Shown here: piece after piece, positions 6,656 to 30,279 of the stretch
Layout: every line of letters begins with the position of its first letter
Numbering within the stretch: position 1 is the stretch's first letter
Source of the DNA: Pseudomonadota bacterium
GTDB taxonomy: Bacteria > Bdellovibrionota_B > Oligoflexia > Oligoflexales > CAIYRB01
NCBI GenBank assembly: GCA_026390435.1
Contig: JAPLFY010000040.1
Span: 40,223 to 104,222 of the forward strand
Length of the DNA stretch: 64,000 bases
Direction: 5' to 3'
The notes under the pieces: model-generated
What the model saw: the letters and a program-made list of their open reading frames with translations, nothing else
The model's database searches: none
Told to the model about the DNA's origin: nothing
Made by a program: the position numbers and the translations under genes

Positions 6656-8062
6656 ATGGCTGATCAAGAATTTGACGTAATCGTTATTGGCTCAGGTCCC
6701 GGTGGCTATGTGTGTGCGATCCGTGCTGCTCAGCTCGGACTCAAGACAGCTTGTGTCGAGTACGAACAATCTTTAGGTGGCACCTGCTTAAACGTTGGCT
6801 GCATCCCCAGCAAGGCGCTACTGCAGTCAAGCGAGCACTATGCACATACACTCCATGATTTGGCCAAACACGGCGTCAAAGCCGAAAAGGTTAGCCTAGA
6901 TCTCCCGACCATGCTGGGCCGGAAGGATGAGGTAGTAAAAAGCCTCACTCAGGGCATTGCTGGACTGTTCAAAAAAAACAAAGTTACTTGGCTCAAAGGG
7001 CGCGGTAGCTTTGTCGATGCCACGACCGTCAAAGTCACTGCAACGGACGGCTCCTCCACAAACTACAAGACCAAACATGCGGTGATAGCCACCGGTAGTA
7101 AGCCTATCGAAATTCCACCGGCGAAATTTGATCGCAACTTGATCATCAGTTCGACAGGTGCTCTAAAGCTGCCTGAAGTACCCAAGCATCTAATCGTCAT
7201 TGGGGGCGGAGTCATCGGCCTAGAAATGGGCAGCGTCTGGCTCCGCCTAGGGGCAAAAGTTACGGTGATCGAGGCTATGGGTACGATCCTTCCCGGCCTC
7301 GACAGCGATCTCACGAAGGGTCTGTTGAAGATCCTCCAACGAGAGGGGATGAATTTTCTCCTCGATACCAAATTAACGGCAACGTCGACGGGCAAAGATT
7401 CCGTAACTGCTACCTGCGTTAAGCCAGATGGGTCGACCTTAGAAATCAAAGGTGACCGTATGTTAGTGGCGGTAGGAAGACGCGCTAACACCGAAGGCCT
7501 GGGCCTAGAAAATCTTGGGATTAGTCTCGAAGCTGGCGGCAAAGTACCGGTAGATTCGCATCTTAGAACTCCGGTAGCAAATGTGTGGGGTATCGGAGAT
7601 GTGATTAAGGGCCCAATGCTGGCTCACAAAGCCGAAGATGAGGGAATCGCCGTTGCCGAGCGGATTGCTGGTCAGGCGGGACATGTGAATTATGAGGCAA
7701 TTCCTTGGGTTGTCTATACTTGGCCAGAACTTGCCAGCGTTGGGATCAGTGAAGACGCTGCCAAGCAGCAAGGGCTAAATGTTAAAGTTGGAAAATTTCC
7801 ATTTTCAGCGAATGGCCGGGCTAAAGCTCTTGGCAATACTGACGGATTCGTTAAGATTGTGGCCGACGCCAAGACTGATCGGATTGTCGGCGCGCACATC
7901 TTGGGGCCCAATGCCTCTGAGTTAATCGCTGAACTAGCCGTTGCTGTAGAGTTTGGAGCCAGCGCCGAGGATATTGCAAGGTCCACTCACGCCCACCCAA
8001 CTTTGGCGGAGTGCGTTAAAGAAGCGGCACTTGGTGTCGATAAACGAAGTATACATATATGA
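6656..8062 (+). CDS. lpdA: dihydrolipoyl dehydrogenase (E3)
   Basis: GSGPGGY FAD-binding site, the redox disulfide GGTCLNVGCIPSK, and the C-terminal HAHPTLAE dimerisation motif. Confidence 0.95.
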   Translation: MADQEFDVIVIGSGPGGYVCAIRAAQLGLKTACVEYEQSLGGTCLNVGCIPSKALLQSSEHYAHTLHDLAKHGVKAEKVSLDLPTMLGRKDEVVKSLTQGIAGLFKKNKVTWLKGRGSFVDATTVKVTATDGSSTNYKTKHAVIATGSKPIEIPPAKFDRNLIISSTGALKLPEVPKHLIVIGGGVIGLEMGSVWLRLGAKVTVIEAMGTILPGLDSDLTKGLLKILQREGMNFLLDTKLTATSTGKDSVTATCVKPDGSTLEIKGDRMLVAVGRRANTEGLGLENLGISLEAGGKVPVDSHLRTPVANVWGIGDVIKGPMLAHKAEDEGIAVAERIAGQAGHVNYEAIPWVVYTWPELASVGISEDAAKQQGLNVKVGKFPFSANGRAKALGNTDGFVKIVADAKTDRIVGAHILGPNASELIAELAVAVEFGASAEDIARSTHAHPTLAECVKEAALGVDKRSIHI

Positions 8063-17333: not shown

Positions 17334-17410
17334 TGGTAGCGGGGAGCGGATTTGAACCGCTGATCTTCGGGTTATGAGCCCGACGAGATACCAGACTTCT
17401 CCACCCCGCG
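17334..17410 (-). tRNA. initiator tRNA-fMet (CAU)
   Basis: The reverse complement CGCGGGGTGGAG...TCGGGCTCATAACCCGA...GGTTCAAATCC...CCCCGCTACCA folds as a cloverleaf. It has three G-C pairs in the anticodon stem and an unpaired 1:72 position (C:U), both hallmarks of bacterial initiator tRNA. The CCA end is encoded. Confidence 0.93.
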
Positions 17411-17602
17411 GTAGTGTCGTCGTTGGAGACAGGTTATAAGCCCTCGATCCTCAGGCGTCAACAAAATAGCATCAGATTTTCATATCTTCGCTCCGATGGT
17501 CCTAAAGAGAGGCTCTGCCCCCCGATCCTACGAGGATTTTAAGGCCCAAGGGGATTTAGACTTGCGGAAATCCACCCCCTAGATTACCCATTAAGTCCGC
17601 AT

Positions 17603-17692
17603 GGAGAGATGGCCGAGTGGCTGATGGCGCACGCTTGGAAAGCGTGTTTACCCTTAAAAGTAACGTGGGTTCGAATCCCACTCTCTCCGCCA
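17603..17692 (+). tRNA. tRNA-Ser (GGA)
   Basis: GGAGAGATGGCCGAGTGG..., anticodon loop TTGGAAA, long variable arm, GGTTCGAATCC T-loop, and acceptor stem GGAGAGA/TCTCTCC followed by GCCA. Confidence 0.93.
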
Positions 17693-17747
17693 CTACCTCC
17701 CAATAAAATCAATAAATTAAGCAGCATAACCATCGTCTGATACGGAC

Positions 17748-17766
17748 GCGGTAGACGATCTACCGC
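17748..17766. promoter_or_regulatory. inverted repeat upstream of the integrase remnant
   Basis: GCGGTAGA-cga-TCTACCGC forms 8-bp arms. It is nested in a second inverted repeat, ATCGTCT...AGACGAT, 27 nt upstream of the ATG at 17793. Confidence 0.35.
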
Positions 17767-17792
17767 AGTTTCACCGTAAAAGGAGGATAGCG

Positions 17793-18654
17793 ATGGGCTA
17801 TTACATTCGTGCGCTCACGGACAAAAAGAAGTTTCCGAAATGGAAAGTGCCGTTCATCTCGTACAAGAAGGCTGACGCTGAGAACCCGGCTGCCCCCAAA
17901 CCCAAGAAGGAATAGGGACGTACCGAGAGATCGCTGGCGTGCTCTTGGCTTTCTGACACGCATGAAGGTAAACGAAGCGCGAGCTCGGGCCAAGCAACTC
18001 AATAGTCTCTAGCTCATCAAGCGCCAAGAAAAGAAGCTTCGACAACTTCGCCTGGAGGAGCGTGAGACCGGCCGCAAGTACCGGGCCTTTCTTCCCGAGG
18101 AGTTCAAAGAGGAATTTGAGCGGCGATTTCTGCGGCGGCGCGACAGCCAGACCGACGCCAAACTTCGGCGTTTCACCCGCGCCCACACGCTTTGGCGGGC
18201 TGTCCAAAAACTGATCATCCATGTGAAGATCGAACCGTCCGAATGGTTTTGCAACCAGTACCAAATTTACGATTATCTCTACGAAAGTAATTTCAGCCTG
18301 TCATACAACAACAAGTTGCTCACCGTCCTCAACCTGTGGGGATTCTTTATCTGCAAGAAGCTGGATCAGCCGTTTCTACCGGTGGCGAAGCCACGCGGCT
18401 ACGAACGTCAACGATTGGTCGACAACTACTACCAAAACCGCGGCGACAAAAAGCAGGGGTCTGGTCCACTGTCACCGGAAGCTCTGATGACCGCGCAAGG
18501 GAAGATGAAGGTGAAGCAATTCAATTGGCTATTTATCTCGGTGTGGCTTGGTCTTCGTCCGCTTGAGATCGACAACTTACAGAGCGGCGACTTTTGGCGG
18601 GTGGAAACACTGCCGATCGGAACGCAAATCCTTTGGGTATTCCAAACCAAGCTG
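17793..18654 (+). pseudogene. tyrosine recombinase (phage-type integrase) pseudogene: frameshifted, nonsense-interrupted and 3'-truncated
   Basis: AGGAGG is followed by an ATG at 17793 that reads MGYYIRALTDKKKFPKWKVPFISYKK... to a TAG at 17913. The reading continues in the +1 frame (WRALGFLTRMKVNEARARAKQLNSL). An in-frame TAG sits at 18010-18012. The frame then runs LIKRQEKK...FISVWLGLRPLEIDNL (Arg box) and ends without the HxxR/Tyr catalytic half. Confidence 0.65.
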
Positions 18655-18858
18655 ATGCGCGGAAGCCAACTCACCTGCCAGGAGGTCCGCACCGTGCTTA
18701 AGGACTTAGGCTACGAACTGGTTCGCCAGCGCGGCAGCCATGAGCAATGGGTCAAAGACGGCAGAACCTTCACTCTGGCCGCTCATGGCAAAGATGCTCC
18801 GCATTATATCTTGGACGCTCTTCGAAAACTGAGCGAGGAACACCATGAAAAAAAGTAA
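18655..18858 (+). CDS. hicA: HicA mRNA-interferase toxin
   Basis: MRGSQLTCQEVRTVLKDLGYELVRQRGSHEQWVKDGRTFTLAAHGKDAPHYILDALRKL fits the HicA pattern (GSH..., about 67 aa). The ORF-track ORF 18223-18858 runs in frame from the integrase remnant into hicA. Confidence 0.8.
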   Translation: MRGSQLTCQEVRTVLKDLGYELVRQRGSHEQWVKDGRTFTLAAHGKDAPHYILDALRKLSEEHHEKK

Positions 18859-19222
18859 AACTAAGATCACCCGACATGCTGTCGAGGTCCTCGAGTATCA
18901 AGTAAATATAGCTTTTGATGTCCGCGACAAAATTCACGTCGCCAGAATACCAGAGCTGGAGAACTGCCATAGCCACGGCACTACGCCGGAAGAGGCTTTG
19001 GCAAACGCCAAAGAGGCTATCGAGTTATGGCTCGAGACCGCCAAAGAGCAGGGCCTCAATATCCCCGAGCCGGTCAGTCGGCGTCAATTTTCGGGAAAAT
19101 TCGTCCTTAGAACATCGCCAAACCTACATGCCACGTTAGCGCAGGAGGCCGCCCATCACGGCAAGAGCCTTAACGAGATGGCTGTCGAGTTGATCCAAAA
19201 GGGGCTCAAGGGAGTCGGGTAG
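18845..19222 (+). CDS. hicB: HicB antitoxin (HicB N-domain plus C-terminal RHH-like DNA-binding tail)
   Basis: It overlaps hicA by 14 nt. IPELENCHSHGTTPEEALANAKEAIELWLE is the HicB fold motif. The C-terminal FVLRTSPNLHATLAQEAAHHGKSLNEMAVELI is RHH-like. Confidence 0.8.
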   Translation: MKKSKTKITRHAVEVLEYQVNIAFDVRDKIHVARIPELENCHSHGTTPEEALANAKEAIELWLETAKEQGLNIPEPVSRRQFSGKFVLRTSPNLHATLAQEAAHHGKSLNEMAVELIQKGLKGVG

Positions 19223-19365
19223 CGCGTTTTGCTGACGCTTCGTCCTGACGATCATTCGATTACGAGGAAGATAACTTCGAGAGTCGAAGCGACGGCCACA
19301 AGGTGGCTCTTCGCTTGAATATAAATGACTTCGAGAGCAAAGATTTCGGCCGCGAGGGGTGATAG

Positions 19366-19944
19366 GTGTCTAAGATTGACAATCTGTGGCAAAAGTTTAA
19401 GGGCAACGGGAAAGTCTATAATTACACACAGAAGTGGATCTGGGTTGTTGAGACGACGACGAATCATCCAAAGGGTCCGGCGATTGCTCATAAATTGGCA
19501 CCGCGAACCAAGGCGCCAATAAAATTTGATATCGATGGTTTCAAAAGAGTCGATGGCAAGGCCATCGAGGGCCACTCCACTTGGTGGAAAATATGGGGAC
19601 ATTGCACTGCAGATCTGTATGACCATGGAAACGGCGTTCGCGTCGATGTTGTCGTAAAGTTCAAGGTTTCAGAAAATAAGTTTGGATCTGTCGTGTATGA
19701 CGATGCAACAGATTGGGGTGATCCAATCCGTCATATTACAAGAGTAGAAAAGGGAAGGAACGGCAGGATAGCCCGATTTTTTGTCGATGACTATGGTTGG
19801 ATTTCTAGAAAATGCGCCATAGAATTGGTTGCCAAGGCCAAGATCGACAACGCTGTTCTGGTGCAACCAAAGAACGGGGAACCTTATCTCCGTGCCTTGC
19901 CCGACCCTGAGACGGGGAACAACTTTCTCTCGATGGTGACTTAG
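19366..19944 (+). CDS. two-domain protein: unknown N-terminal domain plus a C-terminal DUF3892-like domain
   Basis: The C-terminus IRHITRVEKGRNGRIARFFVDDYGWISRKCAIELVAKAKIDNAVLVQPKNGEPYLRALPDPETGNNFLS matches, from memory, the DUF3892 pattern (I..I...W.s...AI..i..g...V......YLrT..D....NNLL.LP). The start is GTG, with GAGGGG upstream. Confidence 0.55.
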   Translation: MSKIDNLWQKFKGNGKVYNYTQKWIWVVETTTNHPKGPAIAHKLAPRTKAPIKFDIDGFKRVDGKAIEGHSTWWKIWGHCTADLYDHGNGVRVDVVVKFKVSENKFGSVVYDDATDWGDPIRHITRVEKGRNGRIARFFVDDYGWISRKCAIELVAKAKIDNAVLVQPKNGEPYLRALPDPETGNNFLSMVT

Positions 19945-19945
19945 C

Positions 19946-20311
19946 ATGAGGTATTTATTTCGCGCATTGCTCCTGTCTTCATGCGTCGGGATAGGGATTT
20001 GCGGCTACAATGCCTTGCGATTCCGCTATGGAGTCAGTGATTCTGTTGCGCGCACGCTGCTGGCGATTCTTGAAGATACGAGATGGGCCTCTGATTTTTC
20101 AGAGGAAAAATTTTCTGACGTAGTTGTGGGTATGACCAAGAATCAAGTTAGCATGCTACTGGGGAAGCCGTTGCGAGAGACTTGCACGGCCGGCTGCGAG
20201 TGGGTTTACACTTGGCAAGCCGATCCAACGGCGAGCTTTGATTGGCGATCTATTCATTTTGATGACTTGGGTCGTGTCGATTTGAAGCGGCGAGAATTTT
20301 TTATTGATTAG
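19946..20311 (+). CDS. BamE/SmpA_OmlA-like small lipoprotein
   Basis: The start lies 1 nt after the upstream stop. It has the signal/lipobox ALLLSSC and the motif GMTKNQVSMLLGKP...W.Y typical of SmpA/OmlA (BamE-like) domains. Confidence 0.55.
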   Translation: MRYLFRALLLSSCVGIGICGYNALRFRYGVSDSVARTLLAILEDTRWASDFSEEKFSDVVVGMTKNQVSMLLGKPLRETCTAGCEWVYTWQADPTASFDWRSIHFDDLGRVDLKRREFFID

Positions 20312-20370
20312 AACGCGCCTACGCAGCTTTTCTCGGAAAGGTTCCTGCATGTGTTGCGGAACACTCGGGC

Positions 20371-20423
20371 TGCGAGAACATGCGAGAACGTTGTTTTTTG
20401 GTGCGAGAACGAGGGGCGAGAAC
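20371..20423 (+). repeat. four direct copies of (T/G)GCGAGAAC
   Basis: TGCGAGAAC occurs at 20371, 20381 and 20402, and GGCGAGAAC at 20415. All are non-coding and lie just inside the right island end. Confidence 0.6.
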
Positions 20424-20490
20424 AACGAGATGGCGCCATATTTCTAAATCTATTCAGATGGATAGGTCAACTTGCCCAGGCGAGACACTC

Positions 20491-20520
20491 GGTTCGCAAA
20501 ATACCGACTTCTCTCCGCCA
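20491..20520 (+). repeat. candidate attR: degenerate copy of the tRNA-Ser 3' end
   Basis: GGTTCGcAAaaTaCCgACtTCTCTCCGCCA aligns with tRNA positions GGTTCGAATCCCACTCTCTCCGCCA. The last 11 nt are identical. Confidence 0.65.
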
Positions 20521-20619
20521 TCCATATTTCGGCCCGATATCCTTCGGATATCTCCTGGGCCAGATCAAGAGCCTCAACAAATTCATCGAATATCTATGTC
20601 TGCAGGCAACCTTGGGAAG

Positions 20620-22812
20620 CTACTGCTGGCATGTGTAAATTTCGTCTCCCAGCGCTTTCGGACCGAGGTTGGTAATCGGCACATAAACGAGCACCCGATT
20701 GGCTCCAATCTGCCGGCCAGAAAACTCCAGCAAACCTGAGCCATCGGATTTGGGATGAGCAATCTCCGAAGGACTTTCCAAATTAACGAAGTCGACTTTG
20801 CGATTGTCTGCTAACAGGTCGGGAATCTGAATCGGACTGCCTGAAGTATTAACCAACACTAAAGCCTCAGCACTTGGATTTGCCGGATCAACGCGCGAAA
20901 ACGCCATCAAACCTGCTTGCTCCGTCGTCGACCACCTCCAGGAGATGCCGCCGCGGCGCAGCGCGGAACATGACTTCCTCGCCTTTAGAAAACGCCTGGC
21001 AGTCACATAGACGTCATGATCGCGCGCCAAATACGGGTCACTTTGCCAGTCCGACGGGGCTGCAGGCGCCAACGGCCCAATGTGGGCCAGCTGATTAATC
21101 TCTGAAATCGCACTACCCAGTCGGAACATGCCGCCGACAAACATATCCTGCCGGTAGTGAGCATCTGAGTTGGTACCAGGTGCTTGGCTACAAAATTGAT
21201 TCATCGCAGCTTGATCGATCGAGGAGTCGATGCTCCCGCCTACACACTGCCCATTGAATGCTTGCTCCAGACCGTAATAAATCACGGGTATTCCTGGCGC
21301 CACCGCGAGGTAAGATAAGCCCAATCTAGCCTTATCTTGCTGCTGCTCAGTAAGGCGTGCCCAGTCATGAATTTCGAGCACGGTCAAATTTAGTCGCGGA
21401 TCACCCTGGGCTACCAGATCCCGGTAGTAGGTGTCGGTAAGGAAGTAGTTCTCCAAGATACGACTAGATCTAACATTGGTCAGAACATCCCGCGAAATCC
21501 CTGAGTGCGCAAAATCAAATACACCGGACACACCGGGATAGGGTGAGTCAGGATTACTTTGTGCCGTTTCTAAAATGGATTTTCCGAGACGGCCGCTATT
21601 CTGGACTAAGTTTCTCCACGTAGCCGTATTTTGCGCCGAGTTCATCCGCCCTAAATGCTGAGAAATAGATAAAGAATCACCGGCAATTTCCGCTACGACA
21701 TAAAAGTGATTTTTTCCCAATTTGCGCGCGTAGTCTCTAATCTCCGTCGAAAAGTAAGCAGTAAAATCGCTGGTCGTGTGTTTCACCGCATCGAGTCTGA
21801 ATCCATCGACATCCGCAAATGCAATCCAGTACTCCATAATGTTGGTAAAGATTCGTTGGAAATCCGTATTGCGAGTGTCGTAGTCGAGCATCTCAGACGT
21901 AAAGTCACCGAAGACTGTCGTTGCCGCTGCTCCGGCCATTTCTGCATGCGAATTTTCTCCGCAGCGATTGAAGAAGTACTTAAGCTTTAACGGGGGGAAA
22001 AATGACTCTGAGAATGCAAGGTCGACCTGATTTGGCGAAAACGTGGGGGAACCGGATGCATCCGCTCGCGCTAGATCATCGGCACAAGCCGTGTGTTCTG
22101 CGGGCGTATGTTTCCGAACGTACTTTGTAGCGGGATCACACAGGTGATTGACAACGACATCAAGTATGACACGAATTCCCTTGGCGTGAGCCTGACGCAC
22201 TAGTTCCGCTAGATCCTCAGCACTGCCGAAGTTAGGGTCGATTTTAGTTAAATCGGAAACGCAATAGCCGTGATAACTGCCATTGGAATTCTCAAAAATC
22301 GGCGTGACCCAGATTGCTGAAATCCCAAGATCGGCCAGATAATCGAGACGCTTGGTGATTCCCTTTAAGTCGCCACCATGATGATAGGCTTCGATGCCGC
22401 GATTACGACTCAAGCCTTGGTTACGCTGCGCCTCTGAAATTAGACTAAAATTATTACTGCTATCCCCGTCATTAAACCTATCGATCATGATCTCGTAGAT
22501 CGTCTCATCACCCCAAAAATTTGGTGATGGATATCTTGGCTGTCCGTTCTGAGTGAAGGCCAATTCAGCCTCGTGATTTCTTGCCGTCGACCAAGACATC
22601 ACGCTATCGACGCCGACTCGGCTAACATCGGGTAGGGCGGCAACTGCAGAGCCAGCACCAGTCACTCGGCTATCGCGATGCCCTAGCAAAGGAACGTTGG
22701 CTCGGCAATCACATAGGACACCGACTACGCTGAACGCACCAATTATGAGGGTCAACTTACGCAAGAATAGGCAGCTGGTCATAGTCATTCCTAGGCCATT
22801 ATTGGACGTCAT
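20620..22812 (-). CDS. secreted GH13-family alpha-amylase-like glycoside hydrolase (large form)
   Basis: GH13 conserved regions are present: [22 protein letters not shown] and a later HD-type region. An N-terminal hydrophobic signal is present. The start codon is uncertain. Confidence 0.8.
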
Positions 22813-22815
22813 CGA

Positions 22816-24177
22816 TCACTTGCAAGATATCAACGAGGATTTCACGAGAAAAGCAGCTGACCTCGGGCCAACGACAAACCCACCACGCAATTGCTGCTGG
22901 CCCGCACCCCATTCGAGGACTGAAATAGCGCCGTTACTAGCCCTGCCGATCTCTACTTTGAGCTTGGTATCCATATCGACATAACACCCCGGATCAAGCC
23001 CAGGCATATAAGCAAGAGGCACATCGACACTGTTGTTCGCAGAATTTAAGATCACCAAACCAGATTTGTTGCGCTCAATAAATAACATCGTCCGCGCATC
23101 GCACTTGGATGGGCAAACCTCATCTGCATTGCGGACATAAACACCAGTACCAGCAAACTTATTATGGAACCTTACGGCGGTTTCGACAAGAGGCTCCCTG
23201 TAATCGTCACGATAAACAAAGCCAGTCCCTACGCCACGCGCCAAGACGAATGCCGAAGCCAAAAGGGAGTCGCGGAGATCGCCGAAGTTATAGAAGTTGG
23301 AGTCCATCGCCGTATCGTGGTTGCGAGCGAACACAACTTTAGACGCGCCCGGGAGCTCGCCTCGGGAGCCGACGGGATACATGAGACTACGAAGATCACC
23401 CCGGGGGGAAAAGGCAGTGATCATGGTGGAAAGCAAATTGAAATCGGTGACAGGCATATAGTCAGAGTAGAGTGCCGCCTCCTCAATAGAATTAGCAATC
23501 ACCTCTCCGTATGAGTACGTGCTTTTCGGCACAGACCCGAGTATGTCCCCAAAATATTCTGGCTCAATATGTTTAGCTGCATCAAAGCGAAAGCCATCGG
23601 CACCGAGGTCAAGAAGTTTAGCTAAGTACTTTTTCTGCTCGTTTCGTACATAAGTCGACCCAGTATCCAAATCGGGTAGCCCCGAATCCCCGGAGCCACT
23701 GCATAGCCAAAAATTTGTGACCTGGTAGCGGTTATTAAAGTCCTTAATGCAGGAGCGGGCCGCTGCAACATGAAAGTCGCACGCAGAGAACTGCGGGAAA
23801 TCGAGGTTTGGGAAGCCAGCCAAACCCGCATTCGCCATGTGATTGAAGACCACATCAACGATCACCTTCAATCCTTTGGCATGGGCTTCCTGGATCAAAT
23901 GAAGCAGGTCCCCCTCGTTTCCCAGAGGACTGTCGATCACTCTTAGGTCCAGTGGCTGATACCTGGCCCACCACTGGTTAAAATTTATACTCTTTTGCGG
24001 TGGGGACACTTGAATGTGGGAGTAGCCAATGGCAGCTAACTCATCCAACTTTGTCTCGATGTCTACGAAGTGTTCGTTGAACGCTTGGTAGATGACGTCT
24101 GCATTGGCAGAAGGCGCAAAAACTAATGATAGACTGCTCAAGAAAAAGCTTAGGTAGACCACACTTATTCGCCGCAT
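22816..24177 (-). CDS. secreted alpha-amylase (GH13)
   Basis: Signal peptide (VYLSFFLSSLSLVFAPSANA) plus GH13 regions I-IV: DVVFNHM, GFRFDAAKHI, YGEV, FARNHD. Confidence 0.85.
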   Translation of the reverse strand: MRRISVVYLSFFLSSLSLVFAPSANADVIYQAFNEHFVDIETKLDELAAIGYSHIQVSPPQKSINFNQWWARYQPLDLRVIDSPLGNEGDLLHLIQEAHAKGLKVIVDVVFNHMANAGLAGFPNLDFPQFSACDFHVAAARSCIKDFNNRYQVTNFWLCSGSGDSGLPDLDTGSTYVRNEQKKYLAKLLDLGADGFRFDAAKHIEPEYFGDILGSVPKSTYSYGEVIANSIEEAALYSDYMPVTDFNLLSTMITAFSPRGDLRSLMYPVGSRGELPGASKVVFARNHDTAMDSNFYNFGDLRDSLLASAFVLARGVGTGFVYRDDYREPLVETAVRFHNKFAGTGVYVRNADEVCPSKCDARTMLFIERNKSGLVILNSANNSVDVPLAYMPGLDPGCYVDMDTKLKVEIGRASNGAISVLEWGAGQQQLRGGFVVGPRSAAFLVKSSLISCK

Positions 24178-24218
24178 GACAGCCCCGAATAAAAGTCAAA
24201 GTTATAAAATTCGAGGCA

Positions 24219-24236
24219 ATTATTATATAATAATTT
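24219..24236. promoter_or_regulatory. perfect 18-bp AT palindrome upstream of the amylase operon
   Basis: AATTATTATATAATAATT is its own reverse complement. It lies 42-59 nt upstream of the amylase start (24177), in a very AT-rich 118-bp spacer. Confidence 0.4.
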
Positions 24237-24295
24237 ATTAAATTTCAATAACTTTTAATAATCAACAAATATCAACCACTTATATTTAATATTAA

Positions 24296-25330
24296 CTAAG
24301 CGGCCTCATCAATCAAGGCCTTAACTCGATGGTAGGTTTTGAGTCCTAGCCCCTCGTTTTCTTTGATGTCATTTACTATCATGCCCCAAAAAGAACCTGG
24401 GTTTTCCAGGCCCGAGGAAACCGCAGTCTTTGCACCGCGGAATTCATTAAGTAAATTTTCAAGATCCAAAGGCGTCATTGCAATCACATGAACCGTCTCT
24501 TGTATCAACACGATTGCCTCTTCAACGCAGTCGCCAGTTGTAACCATCAGGTCGTCTAGATGAGAGAACAAGAGGCTCTCGAATTGCTCAAGCATTTCGA
24601 TTAATTTTTCATGCTCTGAGAGATACTGCTCGTGAACAGTTGCCTTTGACGCTCCCGCTTTTGAAATATGCGCACCATTCGCAAAGTCTATTCCGATTAA
24701 ACTTGATGCTTTAGTATCCTTAAAAAATTGATCAAATAGACGCAGACAGATTTTTTGTTGAACCGCTATCACCGCCAGACTTTGTTGAACTGCAGAATCA
24801 TTTTTCCGTAACACATGATTTAACTTCTCAAGGTCGTCCAGGGACAAACTTGGCCCCAATAGGCCGCCTTGCACGCTCGGATATGCTCTTGCTATCGCTA
24901 CCGCGTAGAAGTTAATAATAGCAATCACGGCCTCGGAAAGATCTCGGTAGTAGGAGTCGGTGGCCACGGCCTGACTTGTGGGTGTGGGATCGTCCGTATA
25001 GTTTTGCCGCAGCAGCACCGATCGCTCGCCCCCCTGACTCAAGCCCTTCAAGGTATCCCATCGACCGTTCACCCGACCCAGCCAGTCATACGAAGGATGG
25101 AGATCCACCATCCTGTGAAGAGTAGCCTTCCATATCACCAACTGATCATCGAGCAACTGCAAACAAGGTCCGGGTGCTCCTGTGTGAGTCGCCTCAGCGA
25201 TAGTTTGAGTTCCTGCATTATCTTGGTGGGATAAATTTTGCTGGCGTGACCGGATTAAACGGGTAACTACCGGCACAATAAAAGTCACGATAATTGCCAA
25301 AGTGAGAGCACTAATAAAGAGGGCATTCAT
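24296..25330 (-). CDS. membrane-anchored hypothetical protein
   Basis: 344-aa ORF with a single N-terminal TM helix (ALFISALTLAIIVTFIVPVV) and no recognised domain. Confidence 0.55.
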   Translation of the reverse strand: MNALFISALTLAIIVTFIVPVVTRLIRSRQQNLSHQDNAGTQTIAEATHTGAPGPCLQLLDDQLVIWKATLHRMVDLHPSYDWLGRVNGRWDTLKGLSQGGERSVLLRQNYTDDPTPTSQAVATDSYYRDLSEAVIAIINFYAVAIARAYPSVQGGLLGPSLSLDDLEKLNHVLRKNDSAVQQSLAVIAVQQKICLRLFDQFFKDTKASSLIGIDFANGAHISKAGASKATVHEQYLSEHEKLIEMLEQFESLLFSHLDDLMVTTGDCVEEAIVLIQETVHVIAMTPLDLENLLNEFRGAKTAVSSGLENPGSFWGMIVNDIKENEGLGLKTYHRVKALIDEAA

Positions 25331-25389
25331 AAAATCCTCCCCACCTAAGTTAAACGATGCGCTTAGAAGTGAGATCGGTTTCTAAAAAA

Positions 25390-25423
25390 AAATCTTTAGA
25401 TATTTAAAAATATCTAAAGATTT
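25390..25423. promoter_or_regulatory. 34-bp palindrome (16-bp perfect arms) upstream of the 24296-25330 gene
   Basis: AAATCTTTAGATATTT-aa-AAATATCTAAAGATTT lies 60-93 nt upstream of the start codon at 25330. Confidence 0.45.
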
Positions 25424-25470
25424 ATCAATAATTACAGTATCTTTTTAGGGTCGTGCATAGCAAACCCCAG

Positions 25471-25511
25471 AAAAAATCCAGGCCGATCGCAGCACTAGCG
25501 CCGCGATCGGC
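25471..25511 (-). terminator. candidate Rho-independent terminator (minus strand)
   Basis: GCCGATCGC/GCGATCGGC forms a 9-bp stem with a 12-nt loop. On the minus strand it is followed by CTGGATTTTTTCT. Confidence 0.4.

Positions 25512-30189: not shown

Positions 30190-30279
<90 letters not shown>

Follow-up and report, generated by a model that had tools for sequence, protein, structure and literature searches.

Islands that integrate into transfer RNA (tRNA) or transfer-messenger RNA (tmRNA) genes, such as those of the P4/lambda type and those of the Islander/TIGER sets, carry the integrase gene immediately downstream of the target tRNA, regenerate the tRNA at one end, leave the displaced 3' fragment at the other and have a small cargo (PMC4383910). 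The siting of an integrase beside a tRNA or tmRNA gene is a signature of an island integrase (PMC4383910). HicAB modules are toxin–antitoxin systems of type II, where hicA (PF07927) precedes hicB (PF05534, PF15919) with overlapping stop and start; HicA has a conserved Gly-Ser-His (GSH) motif, and HicB joins an N-terminal HicB-like fold to a C-terminal DNA-binding part resembling a ribbon-helix-helix. Chromosomal toxin–antitoxin systems typically start to decay by truncation of the toxin, and addiction does not stop their gradual loss (PMC13617665). Here we describe a locus at which elements of both kinds meet. It lies in a 64,000-nucleotide (nt) stretch of contig JAPLFY010000040.1 from a Pseudomonadota bacterium of the Bdellovibrionota lineage (the whole stretch is called the window), where the reading frame of a broken integrase gene (int), next to tRNA-Ser(GGA), runs directly into a hicA gene.

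The locus shares with the islands the position of the integrase, the regenerated tRNA with a displaced 3' fragment at the far end, the small cargo, and the predicted integrase architecture (an arm-type beta-sheet N-terminus, then core-binding and catalytic domains). It differs from them in that the integrase is not recognised by the PF00589 or NCBIfam models, in that this copy is dead and in its unusually small size (~3 kb); moreover, unlike the integrases of such islands, the family to which it belongs is found here nearly only in genomes and metagenome-assembled genomes (MAGs) of Bdellovibrionota. The hicAB pair has the gene order, overlap, motif and domains of the known modules but differs from them in that hicA has lost 9 codons at its start, along with the upstream region native to it, and is fused to a pseudogene. 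A truncated toxin gene beside an intact antitoxin gene also recalls the toxin-first route of decay, whereas here the truncation takes no more than the expression signals and an N-terminal extension particular to the subfamily, and the HicA catalytic core is untouched. We think it probable that the fusion is a deletion-born decay remnant of a tiny integrative islet at tRNA-Ser(GGA), whose integrase is divergent and Bdellovibrionota-specific. The phenomenon is the ordinary decay of a small tRNA-integrated islet and not a new kind of protein.

The integrase remnant and the fusion junction

The integrase pseudogene (17793–18654, + strand) is homologous to residues 1–287 of a tyrosine-recombinase family of ~383 amino acids (aa), and starts 100 nt 3' of the tRNA-Ser(GGA) gene. 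Its ATG at 17793 is preceded by an AAGGAGG motif, and the frame that it opens (MGYYIRALTDKKKFPKWKV...) matches residues 1–40 of the family, whose members are ~381–390 aa long. After these 40 codons, at 17913–17917, the window reads GAA TAG GGA CGT, where the intact homologues have KKEWDVPR, requiring GAA TGG GAC GTA. The defect is a +1 frameshift (one extra base) together with a TAG in place of Trp41, and past it the homologous translation resumes in the next frame. A metagenome contig from ENA that is 99 % identical to the window (L001) reads GAA TGG GGA CGT at the same site; the extra base is therefore common to both sequences and the TAG is specific to the window. A second in-frame TAG (18010–18012) is GAG in L001 and Glu in the closest relatives, P0002 and P0003, at a position that is variable in the family.

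Homology to the family extends as far as ...ILWVFQTKL, ending at 18654 and corresponding to residue 287/288 of 383. What the remnant keeps is an N-terminus like an arm-binding domain, the whole core-binding domain and the beginning of the catalytic domain, where Arg-I (GLRP) and the hairpin Lys (QTK) lie. Gone are 96 C-terminal residues, among them the second Arg and the His as well as the nucleophilic Tyr, and a tblastn search with two intact homologues finds them nowhere in the 64-kb window. A first-pass annotation of this DNA, made from the letters alone, had reported a frameshift near 17913, an in-frame TAG at 18010 and the loss of the catalytic half after the first Arg box, and all three are borne out by the comparison with intact homologues.

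With its frame broken and no second Arg, His or Tyr, the window copy is catalytically dead. As such an enzyme cannot catalyse recombination, the islet would have lost self-excision, and in this sense the immobilisation proposed in the first-pass annotation is reasonable. Mobilisation in trans by a paralogous integrase is conceivable, since several MAGs hold two or three members of the family and an attR-like site persists (below). Over the 862 nt of the remnant, the window and L001 differ at 6 positions, all of them amino-acid-changing or stop-creating; family-invariant residues are altered in the window (Q20P, W41 to stop and a T→I change) as well as in L001 (Q284L). These differences are consistent with neutral drift.

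The fusion junction was mapped to 18644–18657 (+ strand) by blastn and by comparing the codons of the window, L001 and four contigs with an intact hicA (L005–L008). The int sequence found in the fusion, AAACCAAGCTG (encoding QTKL), and the hicA sequence AAATCAAGCTG (encoding KIKL) are identical at 10/11 positions, with an exact run of CAAGCTG. The intact hicA genes read AAA ATC AAG CTG TTG CGG GGC AGC (K I K L L R G S), the window reads CAA ACC AAG CTG ATG CGC GGA AGC (Q T K L M R G S), and L001 reads CTA ACC AAG CTG TTG CGC GGA AGC (L T K L L R G S). Positions 18644–18654 match codons 6–9 of intact hicA, and it is at 18644 that blastn homology to the L005 gene begins; the same retained letters also encode the family-conserved QTKL of the integrase. 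Because the two genes are identical at 10/11 positions here, the crossover can be placed no more exactly than within 18644–18654. The junction recurs in L001 and in two Logan contigs (L091 and L092, 100 % identical), and is therefore not an assembly artefact.

Past the junction, the frame continues as MRGSQLTCQEVR...EEHHEKK and a stop codon. This part is the 5'-truncated hicA (18655–18858, + strand), identified by PF07927 (score 40.2 bits, cut-off 27; profile positions 2–54 of 58) and by alignment to homologues. The HicA core and its GSH motif are intact, the residues G-S-H-E-Q-W are invariant in the homologue alignment, and a solved 63-aa HicA begins at about the point where the Pfam core of the window protein begins. 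The closest HicA homologues (18 aligned, up to 90 % identical) are 72–84 aa long and start with MxxxEKLKxKLLRGS(R/Q)L(S/T)CQEVR. The window gene is without the first 9 codons present in these homologues, and what the protein has lost is an N-terminal extension specific to the subfamily. The ATG at 18655, where L001 and the four intact copies have a TTG (Leu10), is a derived, window-specific TTG→ATG change. In L005 the native region upstream of hicA holds a palindrome, CATAGTACTATG, just before the start codon; no part of the L005 upstream sequence was found in the window. The hicB antitoxin gene (18845–19222, + strand) is intact, overlaps the end of hicA by 14 nt and encodes 125 aa that score 50.4 bits with PF05534 (cut-off 21) and 37.7 bits with PF15919 (cut-off 27), with 92 % identity to the L005 HicB over its full length. 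The first-pass annotation had the integrase frame enter a full-length HicA at 18655, reported in the open reading frame (ORF) listing as a 211-aa chimera. The chimera is as listed (18223–18858) and the frame does run through; the description as full length does not hold, given the 9 missing codons and the derived ATG.

The 298-aa chimera of L001 was searched with phmmer against 1.84 billion representative proteins, and the 150 best of the 409 matches (E ≤ 0.001) were inspected. None of these 150 covers both halves of the chimera, each having a single matched stretch. Integrase-type matches extend over query residues 1–~245 (most ending at ~232) in proteins of ~360–390 aa, and HicA-type matches over residues 227–298 in proteins of ~84–91 aa. 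Chimeras were found solely in the window's own lineage, and the chimera is not a conserved family of long HicA proteins, which would have spoken against the first-pass annotation.

The integration target, tRNA-Ser(GGA), occupies 17603–17692 (+ strand; ARAGORN, and an Rfam tRNA score of 59.5 bits). Its last 11 nt, TCTCTCCGCCA (17682–17692, + strand), form the attL-side copy of a direct repeat (D15) that recurs once, at 20510–20520, in the 300-bp gap between the last cargo gene (p121) and a convergent amylase gene. Local alignment identifies there an attR-like copy of the displaced 3' end of the tRNA gene, GGTTCGCAAAATACCGACTTCTCTCCGCCA (20491–20520, + strand), of which the last 11 nt are identical to 17682–17692; the ~26–30 nt around the repeat look like a degenerate T-arm and acceptor strand. 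The alignment scores 26, against a null mean of 13.6 (standard deviation 2.2, maximum 25) over ~3000 random windows; Rfam gives no match at the site. We place the putative right end of the islet at this attR-like site, which would make the islet ~2.83 kb long. When the flanks of 20 relatives of the integrase were scanned for att repeats, up to 6 kb downstream, most had none of at least 10 nt, and only L027 has an 11-nt terminal repeat; the islands of the relatives probably extend beyond the flank scanned.

Deletion or replacement as the origin of the fusion

The arrangement is most simply read as follows. An islet of ~3.3 kb, with the order int, hicA, hicB, DUF3892 gene, BamE-like gene and attR (the adjacency of int and hicAB being presumed), would have inserted into the 3' end of tRNA-Ser(GGA). 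One illegitimate deletion, of a presumed ~0.4–0.5 kb, would then have occurred at the 7–11-nt microhomology AA[AC/AT]CAAGCTG and removed the last 96 codons of int (288 bp, encoding the second Arg and the His as well as the nucleophilic Tyr), the DNA between the two genes, the 5' region native to hicAB and the first 9 codons of hicA (27 bp). The losses of 288 bp and 27 bp follow from the alignments, whilst the intergenic length, and hence the total, is an estimate. The chimera is in frame because the microhomology has the same codon phase in both genes. Thereafter the remnant would have drifted neutrally, gaining the extra base that is shared with L001 and the two nonsense codons that are specific to the window. 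Transcription of hicB and of any residual hicA would come from upstream only, presumably from the int promoter region or by read-through from the tRNA, and HicA would have to be translated from an internal start, such as the derived ATG at 18655.

Two relatives of the islet bear on this. In L041, two small genes lie behind an intact integrase, and after them come a DUF3892-like gene and a p121-like gene, p119 (40–42 % identity), all in one orientation. In L056, a close relative of L041, GGRKAFT of the integrase is joined in frame to residue ~25 of the first small gene downstream (126 aa); a deletion of ~0.33 kb at the microhomology GGxCTCA (~7039–7045; compare L041 7012–7370) has taken the His and the Tyr. 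The L056 fusion is an independent parallel to the in-frame deletion in the window. Together, the microhomology at the junction, the same-orientation gene order of L041 and the analogous deletion in L056 favour a small deletion between int and a hicAB module that already lay downstream, over the insertion of a cassette. In a third relative, L093, the integrase (69–76 % identical) is frameshifted, and two small genes, a DUF3892 gene and p126 lie nearby in the opposite orientation.

A number of observations weigh against the reading as a deletion-born remnant of a tRNA-Ser islet. The arrangement before the deletion, an intact int directly followed by hicAB, was not found in the databases searched; hicAB lies within 6 kb of the integrase at 0/79 genome loci, none of the closest integrase relatives (P0002, P0003, P0007 and P0010) has hicAB, and the nearest full-length integrase is only 72 % identical and has other neighbours. 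The microhomology itself is deduced from the letters retained in the fusion and from the conservation of QTK(L/I) in the family. Identity to L005 is uneven along the block (window 18644–20313, L005 7322–8991): the hicAB DNA is ~85 % identical (synonymous divergence, dS, ~0.7), identity is ~97 % over the genes for DUF3892 and p121 (dS 0.05–0.10), and the switch lies near 19390. Such a mosaic indicates that recombination has acted within the block. At the right end, the exact part of the attR repeat has a mere 11 nt, within ~26 nt of similarity, and a strain that is 96–99 % identical (L090, found via relatives of the amylase gene) shares the window sequence rightwards from 20452 and not from 20491; the L090 contig ends 96 nt past this divergence, showing neither an empty site nor another island. 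Lastly, sequence profiles do not recognise the integrase family: Pfam matches neither the remnant nor any of the 51 intact members (PF00589 0/51 at E ≤ 0.01), NCBIfam gives none for the remnant or the intact homologues, a profile search of PDB sequences returns nothing significant, and hhalign finds no link to the PF00589-positive integrase of a neighbouring element.

The mosaic leaves replacement by recombination as a minority possibility. On this alternative, which is also what the first-pass annotation had proposed, a block of hicAB, or of hicAB with the DUF3892 and p121 genes, recombined illegitimately into int and displaced its 3' half and whatever lay downstream. The four-gene block is indeed present in L005–L010, with an intact hicA and ~91 % DNA identity, in unrelated surroundings (to its left an IS21 transposase fragment and an amylase gene 50 % identical to that of the window), so it has moved between contexts; in addition, the DUF3892–p12x part is inverted relative to int in L093. 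Replacement requires two breakpoints where one deletion would do, however, and it is evident from L041 and L056 that plain deletion does happen in this islet family, in which the DUF3892–p12x pair is a recurrent native neighbour of the integrase. We therefore consider replacement unlikely: the claim that the catalytic C-terminus is gone stands, and the claim that hicAB was put in its place gives way to deletion on the strength of the microhomology, L041 and L056. The remaining candidate, an inversion that would have carried the int C-terminus and the hicA 5' end to the interval between p121 and the amylase gene, was rejected; no int C-terminus is present in the window, and the ORFs at 20313–20620 are unrelated.

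A separate observation concerns the left border of the block in L005. A 72-aa ORF on the minus strand (L005 6694–6912), which from its translation we take to resemble the N-terminus of an IS21-family transposase, lies immediately left of the intact hicAB, and suggests that the block borders an insertion-sequence remnant there.

Fate of the truncated hicAB module

Preferring a deletion as the origin leaves the possibility that its product was selected. With the native promoter gone, only those deletions that keep hicB and a tolerable amount of HicA expressed from the int/tRNA unit might survive; the TTG→ATG change at 18655 would then restore independent initiation of a core-only HicA, and hicAB would be a live addiction or defence module guarding the islet. 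Several features fit such rewiring: the HicA core and GSH motif are intact, the derived ATG sits exactly on the first retained hicA codon, both known deletions of the int 3' end (in the window and in L056) are in frame, and, in the comparison with L005, the ratio of non-synonymous to synonymous divergence (dN/dS) comes to 0.09 in the hicA core and 0.06 in hicB. Over the 582 nt of hicA and hicB, the window and L001 have 2 differences, one synonymous and one His→Tyr, and the only one inside the hicA core is the synonymous change.

These low dN/dS values are next to uninformative on selection after the fusion, however, because the window and L001 differ by just ~0.3–0.8 % in and around the fusion, compared with a hicA dS of 0.67 against L005. 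The fusion is probably far more recent than the split from L005, and we rejected dN/dS as a test of selection after it. Against rewiring, too, no Shine-Dalgarno sequence precedes 18655 (there is none before the native start in L005 either), the upstream frame is closed by two stops, and a scan for sigma-70-like promoters on the + strand of 17400–20700 gave no site; the same scan finds none upstream of the intact L005 hicA, and for that reason carries little weight. Chromosomal toxin–antitoxin systems, moreover, usually decay toxin-first by way of truncations (PMC13617665), and the in-frame cases number two only. A fusion selected for rewired expression is accordingly something we regard as distinctly doubtful.

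Going further, one could picture a self-immobilised ~3-kb islet that is held in place by a rewired and still-active hicAB under the int/tRNA unit, with repeated in-frame deletions as a selected domestication route. We judge this quite improbable. If it were true, the recurrent in-frame deletions of the int 3' end seen in the window and in L056 would be a route by which islets of Bdellovibrionota are domesticated. Stabilisation of the islet by hicAB, suggested by the first-pass annotation, is possible but unsupported.

The integrase family, its cargo and what they mean

The N-terminal part of the chimera is recombinase-derived on the evidence of predicted structure and genomic context, which agrees with the first-pass call. 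An AlphaFold 2 (AF2) model of P0002, the closest intact homologue, has a predicted local distance difference test (pLDDT) score of 87.6. Every one of the best 50 Foldseek matches of this model in the PDB is a tyrosine recombinase (Cre, XerH, Tn1549 Int, XerA, IntI and lambda Int), with E values of 5e-6 to 1e-3, probabilities of 0.99–1.00 and ~260–350 aligned columns; template modelling (TM) scores are just 0.3–0.4, which we attribute to the inter-domain pose. The N-terminus of the model is a three-stranded sheet with a helix, like an arm-binding domain, and single members of the family give weak matches to Arm-DNA-bind_3. Five residues are invariant or near-invariant in the 51 members, namely R255 (GLRP), K286 (QTK), R340 (YGGRKGF), H363 (WMGHS) and Y373, and the family has Tyr337 where the first His of H-x-x-R would stand. 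We take the order and spacing of the five to resemble the active site of recombinases such as lambda Int.

The genomic context is that of an island integrase. A tRNA or tmRNA gene ends ~100–220 nt upstream on the same strand in 25/50 loci scanned; the targets in these 25 include tRNAs for Ser, His, Asp, Met, Gln, Glu, Ala and Val, along with many tmRNA genes. The geometry in the window, with tRNA-Ser ending 100 nt before the integrase remnant, equals that of the relatives. Nearly all of these relatives (L011–L089) come from MAGs of the Bdellovibrionota lineage, some of which encode two or three members; a few are titled only Pseudomonadota or Proteobacteria, and two candidate phyla are represented. 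That the 287 N-terminal residues are not derived from an integrase, and the chimera is a true long HicA with a DNA-binding extension, could be read into the lack of any Pfam, NCBIfam or PDB-sequence match, but its probability is negligible, given structural matches exclusively to tyrosine recombinases, relatives that adjoin tRNA or tmRNA genes, no protein combining both halves among the 150 best of 409 matches, and a frame with a frameshift and two stops.

Two non-coding elements of the islet are candidates for binding sites. A block with inverted repeats upstream of the integrase start, AACCATCGTCTGATACGGACGCGGTAGACGAT (17728–17759, + strand), is 31/32 identical in L093 (~67–100), where it is conserved though the integrase is only ~69–76 % identical and the flanks have diverged; it may act in regulation or be bound by the recombinase. 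GCGAGAAC occurs in four direct copies (20372–20423, + strand), the sole ones in the 64-kb window, which cluster within 52 nt, 70–150 nt inside the attR-like site, and which could be arm-type sites or binding sites for a regulator.

Downstream of hicAB, the islet carries a gene for a 192-aa DUF3892 protein (19366–19944, + strand; PF13031), which recurs near the integrase family in L041, L056 and L093, and a gene for a 121-aa BamE-like protein, p121 (19946–20311, + strand; PF04355, 29.7 bits), which is always paired with the DUF3892 gene. The recurrent four-gene order is a variable pair of small genes, the DUF3892 gene and a gene of ~120 aa (BamE-like in the window). The small pair is hicAB in the window and unrelated pairs elsewhere, and the block occurs in either orientation relative to int (window 18655–20311; L005 7306–8989; L041 7298–9215; L056 7355–8883; L093 2446–4033).

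Two further observations were made in the window. A second serine tRNA gene, tRNA-Ser(CGA) at 30190–30279, shares 22/23 nt of its 3' end with tRNA-Ser(GGA) (17603–17692), and the Logan contig L091 starts at window position 17664, within the 3' segment common to both genes; the cognate integrase might be able to target either. Outside the islet, window 24119–25489 (1370 nt) corresponds to L090 5366–5682 (316 nt), a strain-variable insertion that holds a 344-aa ORF of low GC content (0.43–0.46) on the minus strand (24296–25330).

The fusion itself is minor. It is a clear case in which one microhomology deletion would take the active site of a recombinase and the control region of a toxin together. 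More reusable are the by-products of the analysis, an integrase family that is invisible to sequence models and a recurrent cargo made up of a two-gene module, a DUF3892 gene and a BamE-like gene. As this Bdellovibrionota-restricted, tRNA- and tmRNA-targeting family escapes Pfam and NCBIfam, its islands may be missed by pipelines that use those models.

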